This document shows, in pieces, positions 25,775 through 31,835 of a DNA stretch of 64,000 bases. The notes below the pieces were generated by a model. That model saw only the letters and a program-made list of their open reading frames with translations, searched no databases and had not been told where the DNA came from. The first letter of the stretch is position 1, and each line of letters starts with the position of its first letter. The translations under genes were made by a program, and so were the position numbers. Origin of the DNA: a virus; UHGV virus genome UHGV-1366123, one strand, 5' to 3'.

Positions 25775-27205
25775 ATGAAAGCCAAGAAGCATCACGTGGG
25801 CATGTTTGACCACATGTTCCAAAAGGGAAAGATCACATTCTTGCTGGATGGTTACTCCGCAGGTTCATCTGGGAAGGGCAAATGTGAATCTCTGATCGTA
25901 AAGAACACGTCGTTTGGATCTAAAGACAGTGATAAGCGTCTTGCAGTCTGTACCACAAACTCTGCAAATGCGTCACATTGGGTTTATGATGACGGCAAGA
26001 AGATGATGTTCGAAGTCCTCCCTTCATCGGCTTACCTGTACGAAAAGCTCGAGTTCGTGGCTATCGGTCACGGTGCGTCGTTCTCCGTTGAACGTCTCTT
26101 CGAAGAAATCAAGATGAGCGGTCTTCCCCTCGATAAGCTCTTCATCCACCCCAAGGCAGGGATCATCACCAAGATCGACGAAGACTACGAAAAGGGTCTT
26201 TGTGATATCGACGGCAACTATTCGTCACAAGACCACGACGGCACAATTGCAGGTGGTTCAACTTGCTCTGGATCTGGTGCAGTTCGTGCAAAGAAGGTCG
26301 TTCGAAACAAGACGGTGACTTATGCTTACCAAGTCCCAGAACTCAAGCAGTTCATCTGTGATGTCGAAAAGCGTCTTATGACGTTTATGATCAATGGAGG
26401 ATCAGTCCTTCTGCAGATTGGTCAAGGTTTCCCACTTTCGTATGGTCTCGGCTATAACAAGCAGAACTCAACAAGTCGAAATGTGACAATCAGTGCAGCT
26501 TTGGATGATATGAATCTTCCTCCATTCTTCGCAGGTGACGTTATCTTGAATGGTAGAACTTATCCGATCAAGATCAACAACAAGAAGTATCGCCTTATTG
26601 GTGGGAAGCCAGTTGTCCGACTTCACAAGAACTCGGAATCGACGCTCAAGTACTACGCTCATAAGCATCTGTTCGACTTCATCGAAGGAGATGATCACGT
26701 TTCTATCGTCACACGTAAGGAATTCATCAACTTCTACGAAATGCGTGAGTTCCCCTACCTTGAATACGAAGTCATCGAATCGTTCAGTGGTACTGGTTAT
26801 TCTCCAATCTGGAACGAAGAAAGTCACCAGCGAGAAATCACGTGGGAAGATGTCGAAAAGAACTATGGGAAGACAATCCCAGATGATGTAAAATGCACGT
26901 CACTTACCAAGCTCCCCCGAAGAGTCTTTGAGTTCGATAAGAGCCTTCTGCACGACGGTATTCTCTACAATCTCTCTCCAAATGGCAAAACTCATATTGT
27001 CATCAACTTCGTCAACTGGGTAGATGGTGAAATGGACGGAGAACGTGAGAAGATCACCGAAAAGGTCGAAGATTGGCTCTCCAAGAACATGTTCGGCGAA
27101 ATCGACACTATCAACAAGCTCGTAGGTGGTAATGATGAAAAGGTCGTGCTTTCTGTACTCGGGACTGGTCGTGAATCCGACGACTTTGTCGCTGTAGAAC
27201 AGTAA
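25775..27205 (+). CDS. purZ: adenylosuccinate synthetase homolog with a non-canonical P-loop; candidate PurZ (N6-succino-2-amino-2'-deoxyadenylate synthase)
   Basis: PurA fold blocks are present (GYSAGSSGKGK P-loop, TNSANASHW, GGSTCSGSG), but the canonical GDEGKGK, with its catalytic Asp, is GSSGKGK here. A PurA homolog in a phage alongside purB and mazG matches the Z-base cluster. Confidence 0.7.
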   Translation: MKAKKHHVGMFDHMFQKGKITFLLDGYSAGSSGKGKCESLIVKNTSFGSKDSDKRLAVCTTNSANASHWVYDDGKKMMFEVLPSSAYLYEKLEFVAIGHGASFSVERLFEEIKMSGLPLDKLFIHPKAGIITKIDEDYEKGLCDIDGNYSSQDHDGTIAGGSTCSGSGAVRAKKVVRNKTVTYAYQVPELKQFICDVEKRLMTFMINGGSVLLQIGQGFPLSYGLGYNKQNSTSRNVTISAALDDMNLPPFFAGDVILNGRTYPIKINNKKYRLIGGKPVVRLHKNSESTLKYYAHKHLFDFIEGDDHVSIVTRKEFINFYEMREFPYLEYEVIESFSGTGYSPIWNEESHQREITWEDVEKNYGKTIPDDVKCTSLTKLPRRVFEFDKSLLHDGILYNLSPNGKTHIVINFVNWVDGEMDGEREKITEKVEDWLSKNMFGEIDTINKLVGGNDEKVVLSVLGTGRESDDFVAVEQ

Positions 27206-27231
27206 TTTCCTCTCTTCAAAGGAACAATCCG

Positions 27232-27279
27232 CAAGAATGGGGTCATTGTGACAATAAGCACACAATGACCCCATTCTTG
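27232..27279. terminator. perfect 19-bp stem CAAGAATGGGGTCATTGTG / CACAATGACCCCATTCTTG followed by TTATAAGATTAATAAAAAACG
   Basis: Read directly. Lies after purZ. Confidence 0.6.
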
Positions 27280-27336
27280 TTATAAGATTAATAAAAAACG
27301 TAGCAACCCCCCCCACACCATTTCAAAATCTTCATT

Positions 27337-27738
27337 ATGACAAAAGACGACTGCACAAGCATTAAGAAGATACTACGGATTTCTACGATAGTTTTCTTCG
27401 TTATCACTACGATTTACTTCATTGTCGCAATTATGCGTATTGCAAACATAGGAAGTGAAAACAAACCTCACGAGATAATCGATTCGTTGAAATACACAAA
27501 CTCTGTCTATGAACACGATGTTCGAAAGTTGAAGGCGCAGATCGATTCACTTTCCCTACAAAACGAGATATCTTCAAAAAAGATCGATTCACTTGAAAAT
27601 GTCGTCGACACGAAGACATCTTCACTAAGGAAAGCAGAGAGCGCAATGCGAGCAAAGAAGCTGAATTTCTCCAAAGACGTGTTCGAAGTCGAACAAGAAC
27701 TAAGACAAAACATCCAAGAATATGAAAAGAATAATTAG
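27337..27738 (+). CDS. type-II membrane protein with coiled coil (i-spanin-like topology; function unknown)
   Basis: N-terminal TM IVFFVITTIYFIVAIM followed by heptad-rich sequence. Confidence 0.4.
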   Translation: MTKDDCTSIKKILRISTIVFFVITTIYFIVAIMRIANIGSENKPHEIIDSLKYTNSVYEHDVRKLKAQIDSLSLQNEISSKKIDSLENVVDTKTSSLRKAESAMRAKKLNFSKDVFEVEQELRQNIQEYEKNN

Positions 27739-28120
27739 TCTCTCGCTCTTGATGCTCATCTATGGTGTAACAGTGTCACATGCGCAGAACATAGAAATCT
27801 CGAAGAAAGATGCTGTCATAATCAACCACATGTTTGATCAACACAAGCAACTTCTTGAAATCTCCACAATGAAGGATTCGATCATGCAGTCGTTGAGGGA
27901 AGTCGTGGACAACAAGACACTTATCATTGAAAACCAACTTGAACAGCTTCGCAAGTATGACGAAATGATGATGAAGAATGACACGATCATTAATAACCAT
28001 AAGAAGATGGCGGAGATCTATGAGAAATCTCTGAAAAAGGAAAGACAAAAGTCAGTATTTTGGAAATATGTTGGACTTCTTTCCTCTGCAGTGGCTATCA
28101 CCGCATTCATCATAAAATAG
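27722..28120 (+). CDS. secreted or membrane-anchored coiled-coil protein (signal peptide plus C-terminal TM)
   Basis: MKRIISLSLLMLIYGVTVSHAQ signal-like N-terminus. C-terminal VGLLSSAVAITAFII. Confidence 0.4.
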   Translation: MKRIISLSLLMLIYGVTVSHAQNIEISKKDAVIINHMFDQHKQLLEISTMKDSIMQSLREVVDNKTLIIENQLEQLRKYDEMMMKNDTIINNHKKMAEIYEKSLKKERQKSVFWKYVGLLSSAVAITAFIIK

Positions 28121-28198
28121 GCTCTCCGAGCTTAAGGAAGGTATTTTCCTTGCGCTCTGGAATATCGACGAATATTTTCACCCCAATCAAATCAAGAA

Positions 28199-30181: not shown

Positions 30182-30184
30182 CCT

Positions 30185-30652
30185 TTATTCTTTCCAGAGT
30201 TCCTTTATTATCCCTTCGGAGAGGATCTTTTTTGCATCATCTTCATCAAAAGAAAGTTCAACGATGTCTTTCACAACATCCTCTTTCGGTATGTTGTAAG
30301 ATTGGGATAAAAAGTCGATGATGCTCTCGGGGATCATGTCGATTTCGACCATAATGTTGAAAGAAATAGTGGACTTCACACCATTCTTCACAATTCCTAT
30401 GACCTCATTTGGGAGGTTTAACTTTCTTGGTGGTAGCTTTATAGCGTGAGACTTATCATTGTCTTCATAGATCATCATTTTCTGATCATTATCTTCCTCT
30501 TTGATCTCGTTTCTATGAAGCATTATCGTCTGACGAGGTTCTTCGTTGATAACCTCTCTGACATTATCAGAAGGTGTCGTGATTGGTATTCCGTTTTCAT
30601 CAACTTCTAACGTGCTAAAGACATCCCACGCTTTGCTATTATTCTCTTCCAT
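30185..30652 (-). CDS. hypothetical acidic protein
   Basis: 155-aa ORF on the minus strand with a divergent promoter region at 30653-30730 (TTTAAATAATG at 30681). Confidence 0.5.
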   Translation of the reverse strand: MEENNSKAWDVFSTLEVDENGIPITTPSDNVREVINEEPRQTIMLHRNEIKEEDNDQKMMIYEDNDKSHAIKLPPRKLNLPNEVIGIVKNGVKSTISFNIMVEIDMIPESIIDFLSQSYNIPKEDVVKDIVELSFDEDDAKKILSEGIIKELWKE

Positions 30653-30730
30653 ACCTGTTGATCTTTCTGATTGGTTTTTCTTCTTATACTTTTAAATAAT
30701 GAGAATTTTTGATCAAAAAAGAAACGAAAC

Positions 30731-31258
30731 ATGTTTGAACTTAGTAATATCAAGATCACAAAGTCTAAGGTCGATGAGAAAAGCATCGAATCTAACGGCT
30801 TTTGGTTTACACCTGTCAATGGTGAATTCAACACCGATGGTGTTGTAGAGTTTATAACGAGTGAACTTGAAAGCCCTAAGTGGCTTGATGGTAAGACATT
30901 CCCATCTCTTAATCATCTCTTCGTCACGGAATCACAGACGAATCTCTTCATGGCTCTGTGTCCGTCTGTAGTCATCGATGGTTATTCGTTCGAACTGAAG
31001 TATAACCGCATCCTCGGTGGTCACCAGCTCCACGCCATAAAGGTGGAAGGTGAAGATGCAGAAGAAGAACAGACCGAAACCGAAACGGAAAAGGTAGAAG
31101 AAACTACGGAAACCGCAGAAGAAACTACGGAAAAGGCTGAAGACGATTCTAAGGAAGAAAAGACCGAAGACACAAAGGAAGTAGAAGAAAAGACTGAAGA
31201 AAAGGTAGAAGAACCAAAGGAAAAGAAGACTACCGCACGCAAATCGACGAAGAAGTAA
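30731..31258 (+). CDS. hypothetical protein with an E/T/K-rich low-complexity C-terminal tail
   Basis: The tail is encoded by imperfect tandem repeats (GAAGAAACTACGGAAA x2). Confidence 0.55.
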   Translation: MFELSNIKITKSKVDEKSIESNGFWFTPVNGEFNTDGVVEFITSELESPKWLDGKTFPSLNHLFVTESQTNLFMALCPSVVIDGYSFELKYNRILGGHQLHAIKVEGEDAEEEQTETETEKVEETTETAEETTEKAEDDSKEEKTEDTKEVEEKTEEKVEEPKEKKTTARKSTKK

Positions 31259-31364
31259 AGATCTCGTCGGTTTTGTTGATTGATTTGATTGATTAGTTTG
31301 AGGTCGCTATGTCGAGAAGATATGGCGACCTCGTCATATATAAGAATACCACAAATCAGTCATA

Positions 31365-31835
31365 TTGATAACAATAAAAATGGATGAAAAAGTAAAAGAA
31401 TACGAGCAATTTGTCGTTTCTTGCTTCAACGAGAATCCTACAAATAACAAGGTTCTCGACTTCATTCACATGACAATGGCACTTATGTCAGAATCTGGTG
31501 AATTCGCTGATATAGTCAAGAAGGCGGTGTTCCATTCTAAGGAGATCTCGAAGGTTGATCTCGTAGACGAACTCGGTGATGTTCTGTTCTACTTCATGAA
31601 CATTTGTCATTTCCTTGGTGTCACGATTGATGATGTCATGGAAGCAAATCTCATAAAAATCCGTGAAAGATACCCCGAAGGTCGTGGCAAGAACTACAAC
31701 TTCGGTACACGTAATAAGGCAGAAGAAAAGAAGAGAATAGAACAATTCTTGATGAAGATAAAGCAGGATGTTTCAATCGATATCAACATCAGCCAAATCA
31801 ATCCTCATCATCAGTCTCAACACATAGGAAAGTAA
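31365..31835 (+). CDS. mazG: MazG-like nucleoside triphosphate pyrophosphohydrolase
   Basis: MALMSESGEFADIVKK ... ELGDVLFYFMNICHFLGV matches the all-alpha NTP-PPase (MazG) EExxE / ELGDxL motifs. Confidence 0.75.
   Translation: MITIKMDEKVKEYEQFVVSCFNENPTNNKVLDFIHMTMALMSESGEFADIVKKAVFHSKEISKVDLVDELGDVLFYFMNICHFLGVTIDDVMEANLIKIRERYPEGRGKNYNFGTRNKAEEKKRIEQFLMKIKQDVSIDINISQINPHHQSQHIGK

Follow-up and report, generated by a model that had tools for sequence, protein, structure and literature searches.

A candidate PurZ-type enzyme from a third clade of the serine P-loop superfamily and a possible 2-aminoadenine DNA pathway in large phages

Results

Genes at the locus

The window, by which we mean the whole stretch of DNA analysed here (64,000 nucleotides of the virus genome UHGV-1366123), is carried by a ~150-kb Bacteroidota-type myovirus with an A+T-rich genome (GC ~41%), and it encodes a 476-aa PurA homolog together with further genes of nucleotide metabolism and DNA replication (Table 1). 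A preliminary description had proposed, from five of these genes (PurA-like, PurB, MazG, guanylate kinase and HD), that the phage may replace adenine with 2-aminoadenine (Z). We found all five to be present and intact, and confirmed the ThyA, DHFR and ribonucleotide reductase (RNR) that it had listed, the RNR matching a class II B12-dependent RTPR structure and ThyA giving a context in which thymine is retained. The guanylate kinase lies where it had been placed but is a minus-strand gene (read on the plus strand, the interval has five stop codons), and the spacings needed correction: purB starts 994 bp, not two kb, after the stop codon of the PurA-like gene, and the MazG gene starts 1.9 kb beyond the end of purB. 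The label 'T4-like' is apt only in a loose sense: the capsid is Gp23-type, but the nearest relatives are the cultured Flavobacterium phage MaF61 (39.5%), for which a complete genome exists, the Lak megaphages, and jumbo phages of Tenacibaculum and Chryseobacterium. The lyase passes both of its Pfam models; it is nonetheless divergent, scoring 268.6 bits with NCBIfam PRK09285 (cut-off 446) and sharing at most 37% identity with any bacterial PurB. The polymerase gene is split, and both halves match a single unsplit gene of MaF61 (ORF67).

Table 1. Features of the window discussed in the text.
Feature	Position	Strand	Supporting matches
Guanylate kinase-like nucleoside monophosphate kinase, 177 aa	8452..8985	-	Pfam Guanylate_kin 65.6 bits; phrog_1815 E = 2.7e-28
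Family B DNA polymerase, C-terminal half (split gene)	10957..12273	+	phrog_262 positions 478-841; phrog_1918
ThyA thymidylate synthase	16340..17125	+	phrog_160 E = 1.8e-115
DHFR	19228..20097		present in window
Class II (B12-dependent, NTP-reducing) ribonucleotide reductase	21323..23365	+	phrog_367 E = 1e-115; PDB 1L1L E = 2.7e-27
PurZ-like succino-aminodeoxyadenylate synthetase candidate, 476 aa	25775..27205	+	intact ORF
Adenylosuccinate lyase PurB, 423 aa	28199..29470	+	GSSAMPHKVNP; Pfam Lyase_1 87.8 bits, ASL_C 87.6 bits
MazG-type NTP pyrophosphohydrolase, 156 aa	31365..31835	+	Pfam MazG 40.7 bits; phrog_229
Family B DNA polymerase, N-terminal (exonuclease) half	35385..36881	+	Pfam DNA_pol_B + exo1; phrog_262/2062
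HD-domain phosphohydrolase, YfbR-like group, 252 aa	54916..55674	+	phrog_318 E = 1.7e-43

The PurA homolog resembles PurZ in profile and fold

PurZ is the enzyme by which some small phages replace adenine with Z in their DNA. The 476-aa protein passes Pfam Adenylsucc_synt (32.8 bits, cut-off 27), scores only 85.7 bits with the NCBIfam PurZ model (cut-off 300), and falls far under the cut-offs of all PurA NCBIfam models. Its best PDB sequence matches are, in order, phiVC8 PurZ, S-2L PurZ and archaeal PurA, and the family profile ranks them likewise (174.8, 133.6 and 111.8 bits, with the best bacterial PurA at 67 bits); in the C-terminal half there is a match to the two PurZ proteins (38.6 and 30.1 bits) but none to archaeal PurA (2.7 bits). 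A confident AlphaFold2 model (pLDDT 94.4) sides with the short fold of PurZ and archaeal PurA (TM-score 0.78-0.86) rather than with bacterial PurA (about 0.6), and carries two insertions peculiar to the family, around aa 140-157 and 270-350.

Substrate and ATP residues are of the PurZ type

We aligned 36 core family members and mapped onto them the PurZ residues named in PMC8342488 and bioRxiv 10.1101/2025.10.22.683976. The P-loop, GSSGKGK at aa 30-36, has Ser at the position of S-2L S23 in all 36 members, where PurA has its catalytic Asp13, a residue reported as 99% conserved (PMC12884076). The same Ser was found in 120/120 homologs among the matches listed, and a library of 1.84 billion proteins gave 99 full-length nearest representatives that all have it (Asp in none); as the change is present in all three sets, it is not a chance substitution, and the loss of the catalytic Asp noted earlier holds throughout the family. 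The position of S-2L T273, Gly in PurA, is Thr in 36/36, and the ATP pocket (S-2L N305, F306 and Q308) reads N, F and N in 36, 36 and 35 members, respectively, giving the family motif N-F-x-N-Y/W. The phiVC8 Y244 position is Tyr in 35/36, W252 is Trp in every member, the V241 position, which clashes with the ribose 2'-OH, is Ile or Val, and the catalytic His, Gln, Arg and Thr do not vary. Thus the PurZ-specific substrate residues that could be mapped are all of the PurZ type across the 36 members. Two other positions differ and, like the two insertions and the low PurZ model score, weigh against the PurZ reading: the ATP-adenine-stacking Pro is not conserved, and the aromatic residue by the guanine 2-amino group (phiVC8 F12, S-2L Y21) is Ala in 28/36.

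These data bear on an ordinary role in purine supply, in which PurA and PurB would turn IMP (dIMP) into AMP (dAMP) and boost adenylate pools during infection by a phage whose genome is, after all, A+T-rich. Pfam and the depositors' label both say adenylosuccinate synthetase, and a full PurB lies alongside; however, the replacement of Asp13, the exchange of the GTP-specific K/D pocket for a PurZ-type ATP pocket, the low PurA model scores and the position outside the PurA clade (below) together make this reading very unlikely.

PurA-like and PurB-like pairs also work in 7-deazaadenine antibiotic pathways, and the enzyme might aminate, with aspartate, a different 6-oxopurine nucleotide (e.g. ribo-GMP or an N2- or 7-substituted guanine nucleotide), so that the product base would be other than plain 2-aminoadenine. 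The Ala by the guanine 2-amino group could enlarge the pocket, one of the two insertions places invariant acidic residues beside the nucleotide-binding GST motif, and the clade is distinct from both characterised PurZ groups. Still, the remaining dGMP-pocket residues are all PurZ-type, including the Ile/Val that would clash with a 2'-OH, and no 7-deazaguanine-synthesis or base-modification gene was recognised among the scanned ORFs of the window or in the MaF61 annotation, many ORFs being unannotated; we consider such a substrate quite unlikely.

A third clade under purifying selection in large phages

A neighbour-joining tree, in which PurA was represented by just two outgroup sequences (one of which had been reconstructed from HMMER alignments), separated PurA from all Ser-type sequences with 99.8% bootstrap and set the large-phage clade containing the 476-aa protein (92%) apart from PurZ (97%) and PurZ0 (100%). 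The protein therefore belongs to a well-supported third, previously unnamed clade of the Ser-P-loop PurZ superfamily. Comparison with PurZ, PurZ0 and PurA, as suggested earlier, thus places it in the Ser-type superclade with PurZ-type nucleotide-specificity residues, which upholds the view that it is PurZ-like and not a normal PurA.

The clade is almost confined to large phage contigs, with hundreds of members from dozens of large-phage lineages, in myovirus-type genomes of 100-440 kb with a family B polymerase. Long homologs carry inteins inserted in two substrate-binding motifs. The gene is under strong purifying selection (pN/pS 0.05-0.08). The idea of a decaying, non-functional PurA relic, to which the protein's great divergence from all curated models might lend itself, is effectively refuted by this conservation, the intact ORF, the invariant active-site residues, the confident structure model and the size of the family.

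PurB and guanylate kinase accompany the PurZ-like gene

In its own subclade, the PurZ-like gene is accompanied by PurB and guanylate kinase, both named as pathway members in the preliminary description. PurB shares a contig with it in at least eight lineages, guanylate kinase homologs lie 1-6 kb from it in six distant loci (L019, L020, L036, L040, L042 and L043), and MaF61, whose PurZ-like protein is ORF141, has a guanylate kinase (ORF95); the window's enzyme is a candidate for the dZMP to dZDP step. A MazG gene is also near the PurZ-like gene in two loci (L018 and L052) and occurs in MaF61 (ORF62).

Accessory Z genes and restriction sites

The window's MazG and HD proteins had been put forward as counterparts of MazZ and DatZ, but both belong to generic phage families and neither identification survives. 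MazZ falls in phrog_9147/4826/801 and gives a BLAST match of just 34 aa to the window MazG (S-2L MazZ); DatZ is phrog_7076 and matches the HD protein marginally (E = 0.015-0.05). The HD protein sits exactly at the Pfam HD threshold (22.0 vs. 22), is 39% identical to MaF61 ORF97 and belongs to a family found in 235 diverse phage records and widespread in ordinary phages. A dGTP to dGMP and/or dATP to dAMP step is possible for the MazG, and the HD protein is a speculative candidate for clearing dAMP/dATP.

A tblastn search of the window and of the complete MaF61 genome gave no homolog of DatZ, MazZ, DpoZ, DutZ or DmtZ. A scan of about 65 family loci showed none within 10 kb either, whereas the genuine PurZ loci that it covered do have Z accessory genes. 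In 15 loci of a sister subclade, a gene for a DmtZ-like NDT protein lies upstream of the PurZ-like one, at a distance of 1.3-3.6 kb; the protein reaches 32.5 bits with Pfam NDT (cut-off 28.8) and aligns to DmtZ domains in HHalign with 95.7% probability (E = 8e-9).

Restriction sites that contain A, and at which dZ blocks the commercial enzyme at least in part, are purged: GACGTC and GGATCC are both absent from the window (6.0 and 8.8 expected, respectively), and GACGTC from MaF61 (10.7 expected). This counts against Z DNA but weighs little, because phiVC8, a proven Z phage, also purges GATC.

We therefore considered whether the enzyme pair makes dZ nucleotides for something other than bulk genome replacement, leaving DNA that is mostly A. 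Z might then make up a small or partial share of the DNA, or dZ nucleotides might serve to manipulate pools or to counter host defence. The lack of a known adenine-exclusion enzyme or Z-selective polymerase in the window and MaF61 and the continued site purging point this way, as does the partial substitution obtained in E. coli with purZ-mazZ-datZ but no further replication proteins (PMC12944874). On the other side stand the retention of the gene in dozens of lineages under purifying selection, its linkage to PurB and guanylate kinase, which feed the triphosphate pool, the DmtZ-like gene of the sister subclade, whose known relatives remove dAMP, and full substitution in S-2L with a non-selective polymerase (PMC8065100). 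We judge such a use of dZ nucleotides, outside bulk replacement, to be rather unlikely.

Discussion

PurZ-type chemistry is the probable function of the 476-aa protein, judging by its sequence. From homology, conserved residues and gene linkage we infer the steps of a pathway, and with them the enzyme activity, acceptance of dZTP by the polymerase and the extent of A replacement. The enzyme would activate the O6 of dGMP with ATP and condense it with aspartate to N6-succino-2-amino-2'-deoxyadenylate, from which phage PurB would release fumarate to give dZMP; phage guanylate kinase would make dZDP and a cellular NDP kinase dZTP, and the split family B polymerase, which would need to accept dZTP, would place Z opposite T. 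The dGMP might derive from degraded host DNA, or from dGTP that the class II RNR makes and MazG cuts back, a step that the RNR's dNTP supply would make useful.

For the combined statement, a third-clade PurZ-type enzyme with this pathway into DNA, we put the chances at about even, and virion DNA with substantial Z is plausible if somewhat doubtful. Of the original proposal, the PurZ-like enzyme stands, as does its linkage to PurB and guanylate kinase; because neither a known adenine-exclusion enzyme nor DpoZ turned up in the window or MaF61, the passage from making dZ nucleotides to replacing A by Z is one that we infer. Notwithstanding, these results suggest that Z-type DNA chemistry may reach beyond small phages into a class of big ones.

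Among known systems, the PurZ of phiVC8 and S-2L (PDB 6FM1 and 7ODX) shares with the family a short archaeal-type fold, the Ser P-loop GS(S/T)GKG, the aspartate-loop Thr (T-x-x-T-K-x-x-R-R-V/I-F), the ATP-type pocket N-F-x-N/Q-Y/W and the motif SG..Y.DQ.E.TWE. However, identity is only about 28-30%, over the N-terminal half, the known enzymes are about 343-359 aa long and without the two insertions, and they retain the F12/Y21 aromatic and the stacking Pro. Their phages are podo- or siphoviruses of 40 kb that carry DpoZ or PrimPol; our separate clade has its own PurB and guanylate kinase, without adjacent DatZ or MazZ, and where known Z phages use PolA, it has a family B polymerase. The HD and MazG-fold proteins of the window share broad superfamilies alone with the DatZ/MazZ set.

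PurZ0 of actinophages (Wayne, Archimedes PDB 7VF6, Hiyaa/Galactica) likewise has the P-loop Ser and the aspartate-loop Thr, and the Streptomyces phage Galactica has a PurB-like lyase of its own, a precedent for the pairing seen here; the DmtZ-like NDT protein of our sister subclade, of a kind that PurZ0 phages carry too, is a further likeness. PurZ0 nevertheless lies further off, with a profile score of 59 bits and a Kimura distance of 2.04 (1.61 for PurZ), and it has a GSEAKG P-loop and a PurA-type T-M-x-D nucleotide pocket; DutZ is absent here. Archaeal short-form PurA (Pyrococcus horikoshii, PDB 5K7X/2D7U) shares the compact fold (TM-score 0.84-0.86) and, through its N-terminal part, the profile match given above, but it keeps the IMP/GTP-type residues GDEGKG, TGRRRR, MLDK and TGP.

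A PurZ-type active site in a divergent synthetase homolog

The five genes on which the preliminary description had rested its proposal of a 2-aminoadenine (Z) pathway, those for a PurA-like protein, PurB, a MazG protein, a guanylate kinase and an HD hydrolase, all exist in the window. A serine in place of the catalytic Asp13 of PurA marks the PurZ superfamily of 2-amino-deoxyadenylosuccinate synthetases (PMC12884076, PMC8515928), and the window protein carries it in its P-loop; the reported loss of the Asp held across the family, with Ser in 36/36 aligned members and, among the best 150 matches in a library of 1.84 billion representatives, in every one of the 99 full-length proteins (Asp in 0/99). 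We mapped substrate residues on 36 core family members aligned with reference sequences, taking the S-2L PurZ positions from PMC8342488 and further PurZ discriminators from the metaGPA study (bioRxiv 10.1101/2025.10.22.683976). The donor pocket of the window protein (N411, F412, N414, W415) follows the PurZ-type N-F-x-N/Q-Y pattern, whereas PurA and PurZ0, the second characterised group, have T-K/M-x-D at these positions. General catalytic residues do not vary in the 36-member alignment.

Features of the window discussed in the text
Feature	Coordinates	Strand	Description
Guanylate kinase	8452..8985	-	Pfam Guanylate_kin 65.6 bits vs 25.2
Family B DNA polymerase, C-terminal half	10957..12273	+	split gene
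DHFR-like ORF 1	17141..18136	+	Pfam DHFR-domain match, 17.9 bits
DHFR-like ORF 2	18156..19214	+	Pfam DHFR-domain match, 31.5 bits
DHFR-like ORF 3	19228..20097	+	Pfam DHFR-domain match, 125.2 bits
N6_N4_Mtase-like ORF	20574..21302	+	242 aa, Pfam 22.8 bits (cut-off 26.7), phrog_24333 'DNA methyltransferase'
HU-type DNA-binding protein	25318..25581	+	Pfam Bac_DNA_binding 89.2 bits
PurZ-like ORF	25775..27205	+	476 aa, GSSGKGK at aa 30-36, Pfam Adenylsucc_synt 32.8 bits
PurB	28199..29470	+	adenylosuccinate lyase, GSSAMPHKVNP
MazG	31365..31835	+	MazG-type protein
Large terminase ORF	32745..33827	+	phrog_2/5989
Large terminase ORF	33880..34698	+	phrog_24361
Family B DNA polymerase, N-terminal half	35385..36881	+	split gene
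GroEL-type chaperonin	37152..38741	+	phrog_5725, E = 8e-112
HD-domain protein	54916..55674	+	phrog_318

Substrate residues of PurZ and their state in 36 aligned family members
Position	Role	Family
S-2L S23 (PurA Asp13)	beside guanine 2-amino group	Ser 36/36
S-2L T273 / phiVC8 T262 (PurA Gly)	aspartate loop, accommodates guanine 2-amino group	Thr 36/36; window T375
S-2L N305-F306-x-Q308	ATP adenine pocket	N 36, F 36, N 35 of 36; Y/W 32
phiVC8 Y244	metaGPA discriminator	Y 35/36
phiVC8 W252	metaGPA discriminator	W 36/36
S-2L V241	clashes with ribose 2'-OH	Ile 30, Val 6

Curated models do not claim the protein for either enzyme. It scores 85.7 bits against the NCBIfam PurZ model NF038379 (cut-off 300), with the match limited to residues 30-268, and stays far below the cut-offs of the purA models (TIGR00184, 44.1 vs. 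395.55; PRK01117, 25.3 vs. 402; PRK04293, 81.9 vs. 368). On these scores, the Asp13-to-Ser change and the replacement of the GTP-specific K331/D333 pocket by N-F-x-N, we rejected a canonical PurA identity; a role in ordinary AMP supply is unlikely in view of the active-site residues. Among solved structures, the top sequence matches were, in order, phiVC8 PurZ, S-2L PurZ and Pyrococcus PurA, and a profile of 51 family members ranked PurZ (174.8 and 133.6 bits) ahead of archaeal PurA (111.8), the best bacterial PurA (67) and PurZ0 (59). In the C-terminal half, the two PurZ proteins still matched this profile (38.6 and 30.1 bits), whereas archaeal PurA, at 2.7 bits, did not. An AlphaFold2 model of the window protein (pLDDT 94.4) belongs with the short fold shared by PurZ and archaeal PurA, at per-target TM-scores of 0.78-0.86 as against ~0.6 for bacterial and eukaryotic PurA; the fold search with this model does not tell PurZ from archaeal PurA, so sequence motifs are needed to separate them. 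The comparison with PurZ, PurZ0 and PurA by profile, structure and specificity residues, which the preliminary description had proposed, gave PurZ as the best sequence match and PurZ-type residues at the substrate positions tabulated above.

From its residues and profile matches, the window protein probably performs PurZ-type chemistry, in which dGMP, Asp and ATP give dSMP. A rival reading is that the family acts on a related but different purine substrate: it differs from PurZ in having Ala in 28/36 members at phiVC8 F12 / S-2L Y21, in a variable residue where PurZ has the Pro stacking on adenine, and in two insertions (~residues 140-157 and 270-350), while the annotated ORFs showed no genes in support of a 7-deazapurine.

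Large phages carry a third PurZ-superfamily clade

In a neighbour-joining tree (361 alignment columns, 500 bootstraps) with few outgroups, PurA being represented by E. coli and Pyrococcus, these two PurA sequences separated from all Ser-type sequences with 99.8% bootstrap support, and PurZ0 (100%), the PurZ core (97%) and a large-phage clade with the window protein (92%; its core 87%) were each recovered. The window protein lies not inside the monophyletic phiVC8/S-2L-type PurZ group but in its own clade, sister to the PurZ core in this sparsely rooted tree, with 65% support for the joint node. By these splits and bootstraps, the large-phage family makes up, at the level of sequence, a third PurZ-superfamily clade. 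The literature covered does not describe it, although a large-scale PurZ homology survey may already list it. The cultured Flavobacterium phage MaF61, whose PurZ-like protein is ORF141, was published without mention of that gene, and both phage and host are in culture (PMC13269007).

A cut-off of E ≤ 1e-3 gave 753 library matches, and one of E ≤ 1e-30 gave 44. Prokaryotic genome assemblies have almost no members of the family (six weak matches, all on MAG contigs); the contigs that carry it reach 436 kb, and IMG/VR holds ~184 contigs with the gene. A pN/pS of 0.05-0.08 indicates strong purifying selection on the PurZ-like gene. Seven homologs of 750-820 aa (P0073, P0128, P0129, P0131, P0133, P0135, P0138) carry intein-sized inserts in the conserved GST and TSR motifs, which bind nucleotide; one site follows GGS|TC (window residues 161-163), the other directly precedes TSR (~residue 227); the inserts of P0128, P0131 and P0138 have the canonical intein ends (Cys start, His-Asn end), and intein and LAGLIDADG Pfam domains were precomputed for P0073. 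Three jumbo-phage-sized contigs of 240-436 kb (L066, L067, L069) encode PurZ-like proteins of ~390 aa (P-loop (F/L)WGSSGKGK) that form a small group apart; it is 100% monophyletic, branches basally in the large-phage clade and matches phiVC8 PurZ better than it does the window protein.

PurB and guanylate kinase accompany the gene in the window subclade

The window PurB passes Pfam Lyase_1 and ASL_C and has the SSxMPxKxN catalytic signature, which together identify it as a predicted PurB; at 268.6 against the NCBIfam equivalog cut-off of 446, it is a divergent member. PurB shares a contig with the PurZ-like gene in at least the window species, MaF61, L011/12, L013-15, L018, L019/20, L038 and L040, and probably on two more contigs of 26,006 and 21,899 bp, to judge from their matching lengths. 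No bacterial PurB is more than 37% identical to the phage protein, which marks it as an old phage gene. PurB is uncommon among isolated phages; a precedent is the PurB encoded by Galactica, a Streptomyces phage of the PurZ0 type.

The guanylate kinase is present as described, though on the minus strand; its assignment is a prediction from a Guanylate_kin match confined to the N-terminal half, and it falls below the NCBIfam equivalog cut-off (64 vs. 160.45). Six loci just 36-40% identical to the window protein have a guanylate kinase 1-6 kb from the PurZ-like gene, and MaF61 also has one, ~1.5 kb from its HD homolog. On the best explanation, the PurZ-type enzyme would feed a pathway that converts dGMP via dSMP and dZMP into dZDP, the steps of which would all be phage-encoded.

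Known adenine-exclusion enzymes and a DmtZ-like neighbour

The earlier equation of the HD protein with DatZ and of the MazG protein with MazZ was not sustained. The former belongs to phrog_318, a group with 235 diverse phage records, Stx prophages among them, whereas DatZ, the dATP triphosphohydrolase of Z phages, is phrog_7076; the window protein stayed below the cut-offs for YfbR-like (17.6 vs. 25.9) and HD_3 (16.7 vs. 22.5), matched DatZ by BLAST only at E = 0.015-0.05 and retrieved no DatZ in a PDB search. The latter is phrog_229, as against PHROGs 9147/4826/801 for MazZ, a (d)GTP-specific MazG-HisE pyrophosphohydrolase; in the sole stretch that BLAST aligned with S-2L MazZ (window 69-102, S-2L 50-83), the equivalents of I56 and D60, which specify guanine in MazZ (S-2L numbering; PMC8342488), read F75 and N79 from sequence.

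A scan of 10 kb around the gene in 79 IMG/VR loci found DatZ, MazZ/DUF550, DpoZ or PrimPol in none of the ~65 large-phage family loci, whereas the control PurZ loci (L071-L083) had DatZ, MazZ and DpoZ within that distance. Tblastn with every ORF from phiVC8, from S-2L and from the clusters of Wayne and Galactica gave matches to PurZ and PurB alone in the window, and to these two and one S-2L helicase in the complete MaF61 genome, so that neither has a DatZ, MazZ/DUF550, DpoZ or PrimPol match. Enzymes of the SLOG/LOG type act on nucleotides, which makes a YpsA-type SLOG protein of MaF61 (ORF46, L084 21100..21627, minus strand; Pfam 95.1 bits) a further candidate for nucleotide-pool editing. A second rival reading belongs here, namely that dZ is made without bulk replacement of genomic A.

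Unbiased clustering of all ORFs near the PurZ-like gene, across 25 lineages, revealed a 198-aa family in 15 sister-subclade loci (L029, L035, L039, L041, L044, L045, L048, L049, L051, L054, L055, L060, L061, L062, L068), in every case lying 1.3-3.6 kb upstream of that gene (ORF starts at ~6.9-8.7 kb vs. ~10.0 kb; 2.5 kb vs. 6.1 kb in L045). The family is NDT-like (Pfam PF05014, 32.5 bits vs. a cut-off of 28.8) and aligns with DmtZ domains from Wayne, from Galactica and from an NDT-dUTPase fusion in L077 at an HHalign probability of 95.7% (E = 8e-9). DmtZ, an NDT-like dAMP hydrolase/transferase, removes dAMP in PurZ0 phages (PMC12884076), and this neighbour in the sister subclade links the whole family to Z-type metabolism. 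A family HMM found no DmtZ-like gene in the window or MaF61 (nothing at E < 0.01), and the pattern shows two accessory-gene solutions within the large-phage family, an NDT/DmtZ-like gene in the sister subclade and PurB with guanylate kinase in the window subclade. In L077 and L078, a PurZ-type gene (10001-10726) with the unusual P-loop GSCGKG is followed from ~11838 by an NDT-dUTPase fusion, which scores 43.9 bits for Pfam Nuc_deoxyrib_tr and 83.1 bits for dUTPase. PurZ0 phages have been described with this DmtZ-DutZ arrangement, yet the PurZ-type protein of L077 and L078 does not group with PurZ0 in the tree.

Restriction-site counts

Palindromes of G and C alone are all but missing (observed/expected, window and MaF61: CCGG, 0/46 and 1/122; CGCG, 0/35 and 0/78; GGCC, 7/31 and 1/148) with the exception of GCGC, which is spared (26 observed vs. 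20 expected and 96 vs. 87). The purge of these three sites holds for the window, MaF61 (L084, L090, L001, L091), L011, L013 and L016 and was not seen in the more distant family contigs L029, L047, L051, L055, L061 and L067; it suggests that cytosines are unmodified and that host restriction pressure is strong. Most A/T-containing 4-mer palindromes are near expectation in both phages, CTAG being depleted in the window (7/73), but several A-containing 6-mers are purged as well: GAGCTC, GACGTC and GGTACC (both), GGATCC (window) and AGATCT (MaF61). AatII and BamHI are reported to be blocked by dZ, in part or more (PMC12944874). In phiVC8, an established Z phage, GATC is purged too (4/152), so site avoidance, taken as a proxy for A modification, does not discriminate.

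The phage and the genes around the PurZ-like gene

The preliminary description had called the phage T4-like. The window encodes a Gp23-type capsid protein, prohead protease, portal, baseplate wedge, gp32-like SSB, clamp loader, Dda-like helicase, GroEL and a split family B polymerase; the capsid type stands, but close kinship with T4 does not, since the nearest capsid relatives are MaF61 (39.5%), then Lak megaphages and Tenacibaculum and Chryseobacterium jumbo phages, which places the phage in a distant Gp23-type, Bacteroidota-associated lineage. The hosts of the large-phage group are apparently Bacteroidota, possibly with others. IMG/VR holds near-identical contigs of ~150 kb; a near-identical DNA search of phage records gave zero matches. 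ThyA, DHFR and an RTPR-type class II RNR were found, as reported.

The two polymerase halves lie ~23 kb apart, the C-terminal one upstream; in MaF61 the polymerase is one unsplit gene (ORF67). The three consecutive DHFR-like ORFs form a tandem paralog array beside ThyA, the first two (331-352 aa) without a family match outside the DHFR region. Between DHFR and RNR, the N6_N4_Mtase-like protein has DLPF in place of the usual DPPY, and a clear AdoMet motif I was not seen. The HU-type gene lies directly upstream of the PurZ-like gene, an adjacency found in 5/25 lineages, and the large terminase, which appears to span at least two adjacent ORFs here, is the commonest PurZ-like neighbour (8/25 lineages) and directly adjoins that gene in MaF61. 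The chaperonin gene, between the polymerase N-terminal half and the SSB gene, is kept in MaF61 (ORF64/65), L011 and L013.

Implications and comparison with known Z phages

That virion DNA carries substantial Z is a serious possibility, although we would lean slightly against it. We hold it doubtful that these family B polymerase myoviruses, a large and widespread group (100-440 kb contigs), replace A fully by Z, using a third PurZ clade, their own PurB and kinase and an exclusion route unrelated to DatZ, DpoZ and DutZ. Were full replacement true, Z-DNA would no longer be limited to small siphoviruses and podoviruses and would be much more common than believed. The presence of Z in these phages would widen the host and genome-size range of Z-DNA considerably, mean that family B replisomes can cope with Z and imply a new adenine-exclusion route; its absence would leave a PurZ-like enzyme with another role, which would likewise be new.

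The phages with Z genomes in the literature covered are small siphoviruses and podoviruses with a PolA-type DpoZ or PrimPol and two PurZ lineages, and the abstract of a 2021 NAR article describes Z phages as Siphoviridae and Podoviridae. The large-phage family departs from these in being without the known adenine-exclusion enzymes, as searched in the window and MaF61, and in its carriers, big phages that have contractile tails, family B polymerases and a PurB and guanylate kinase of their own; it is a third lineage, and it has the same diagnostic active-site residues.
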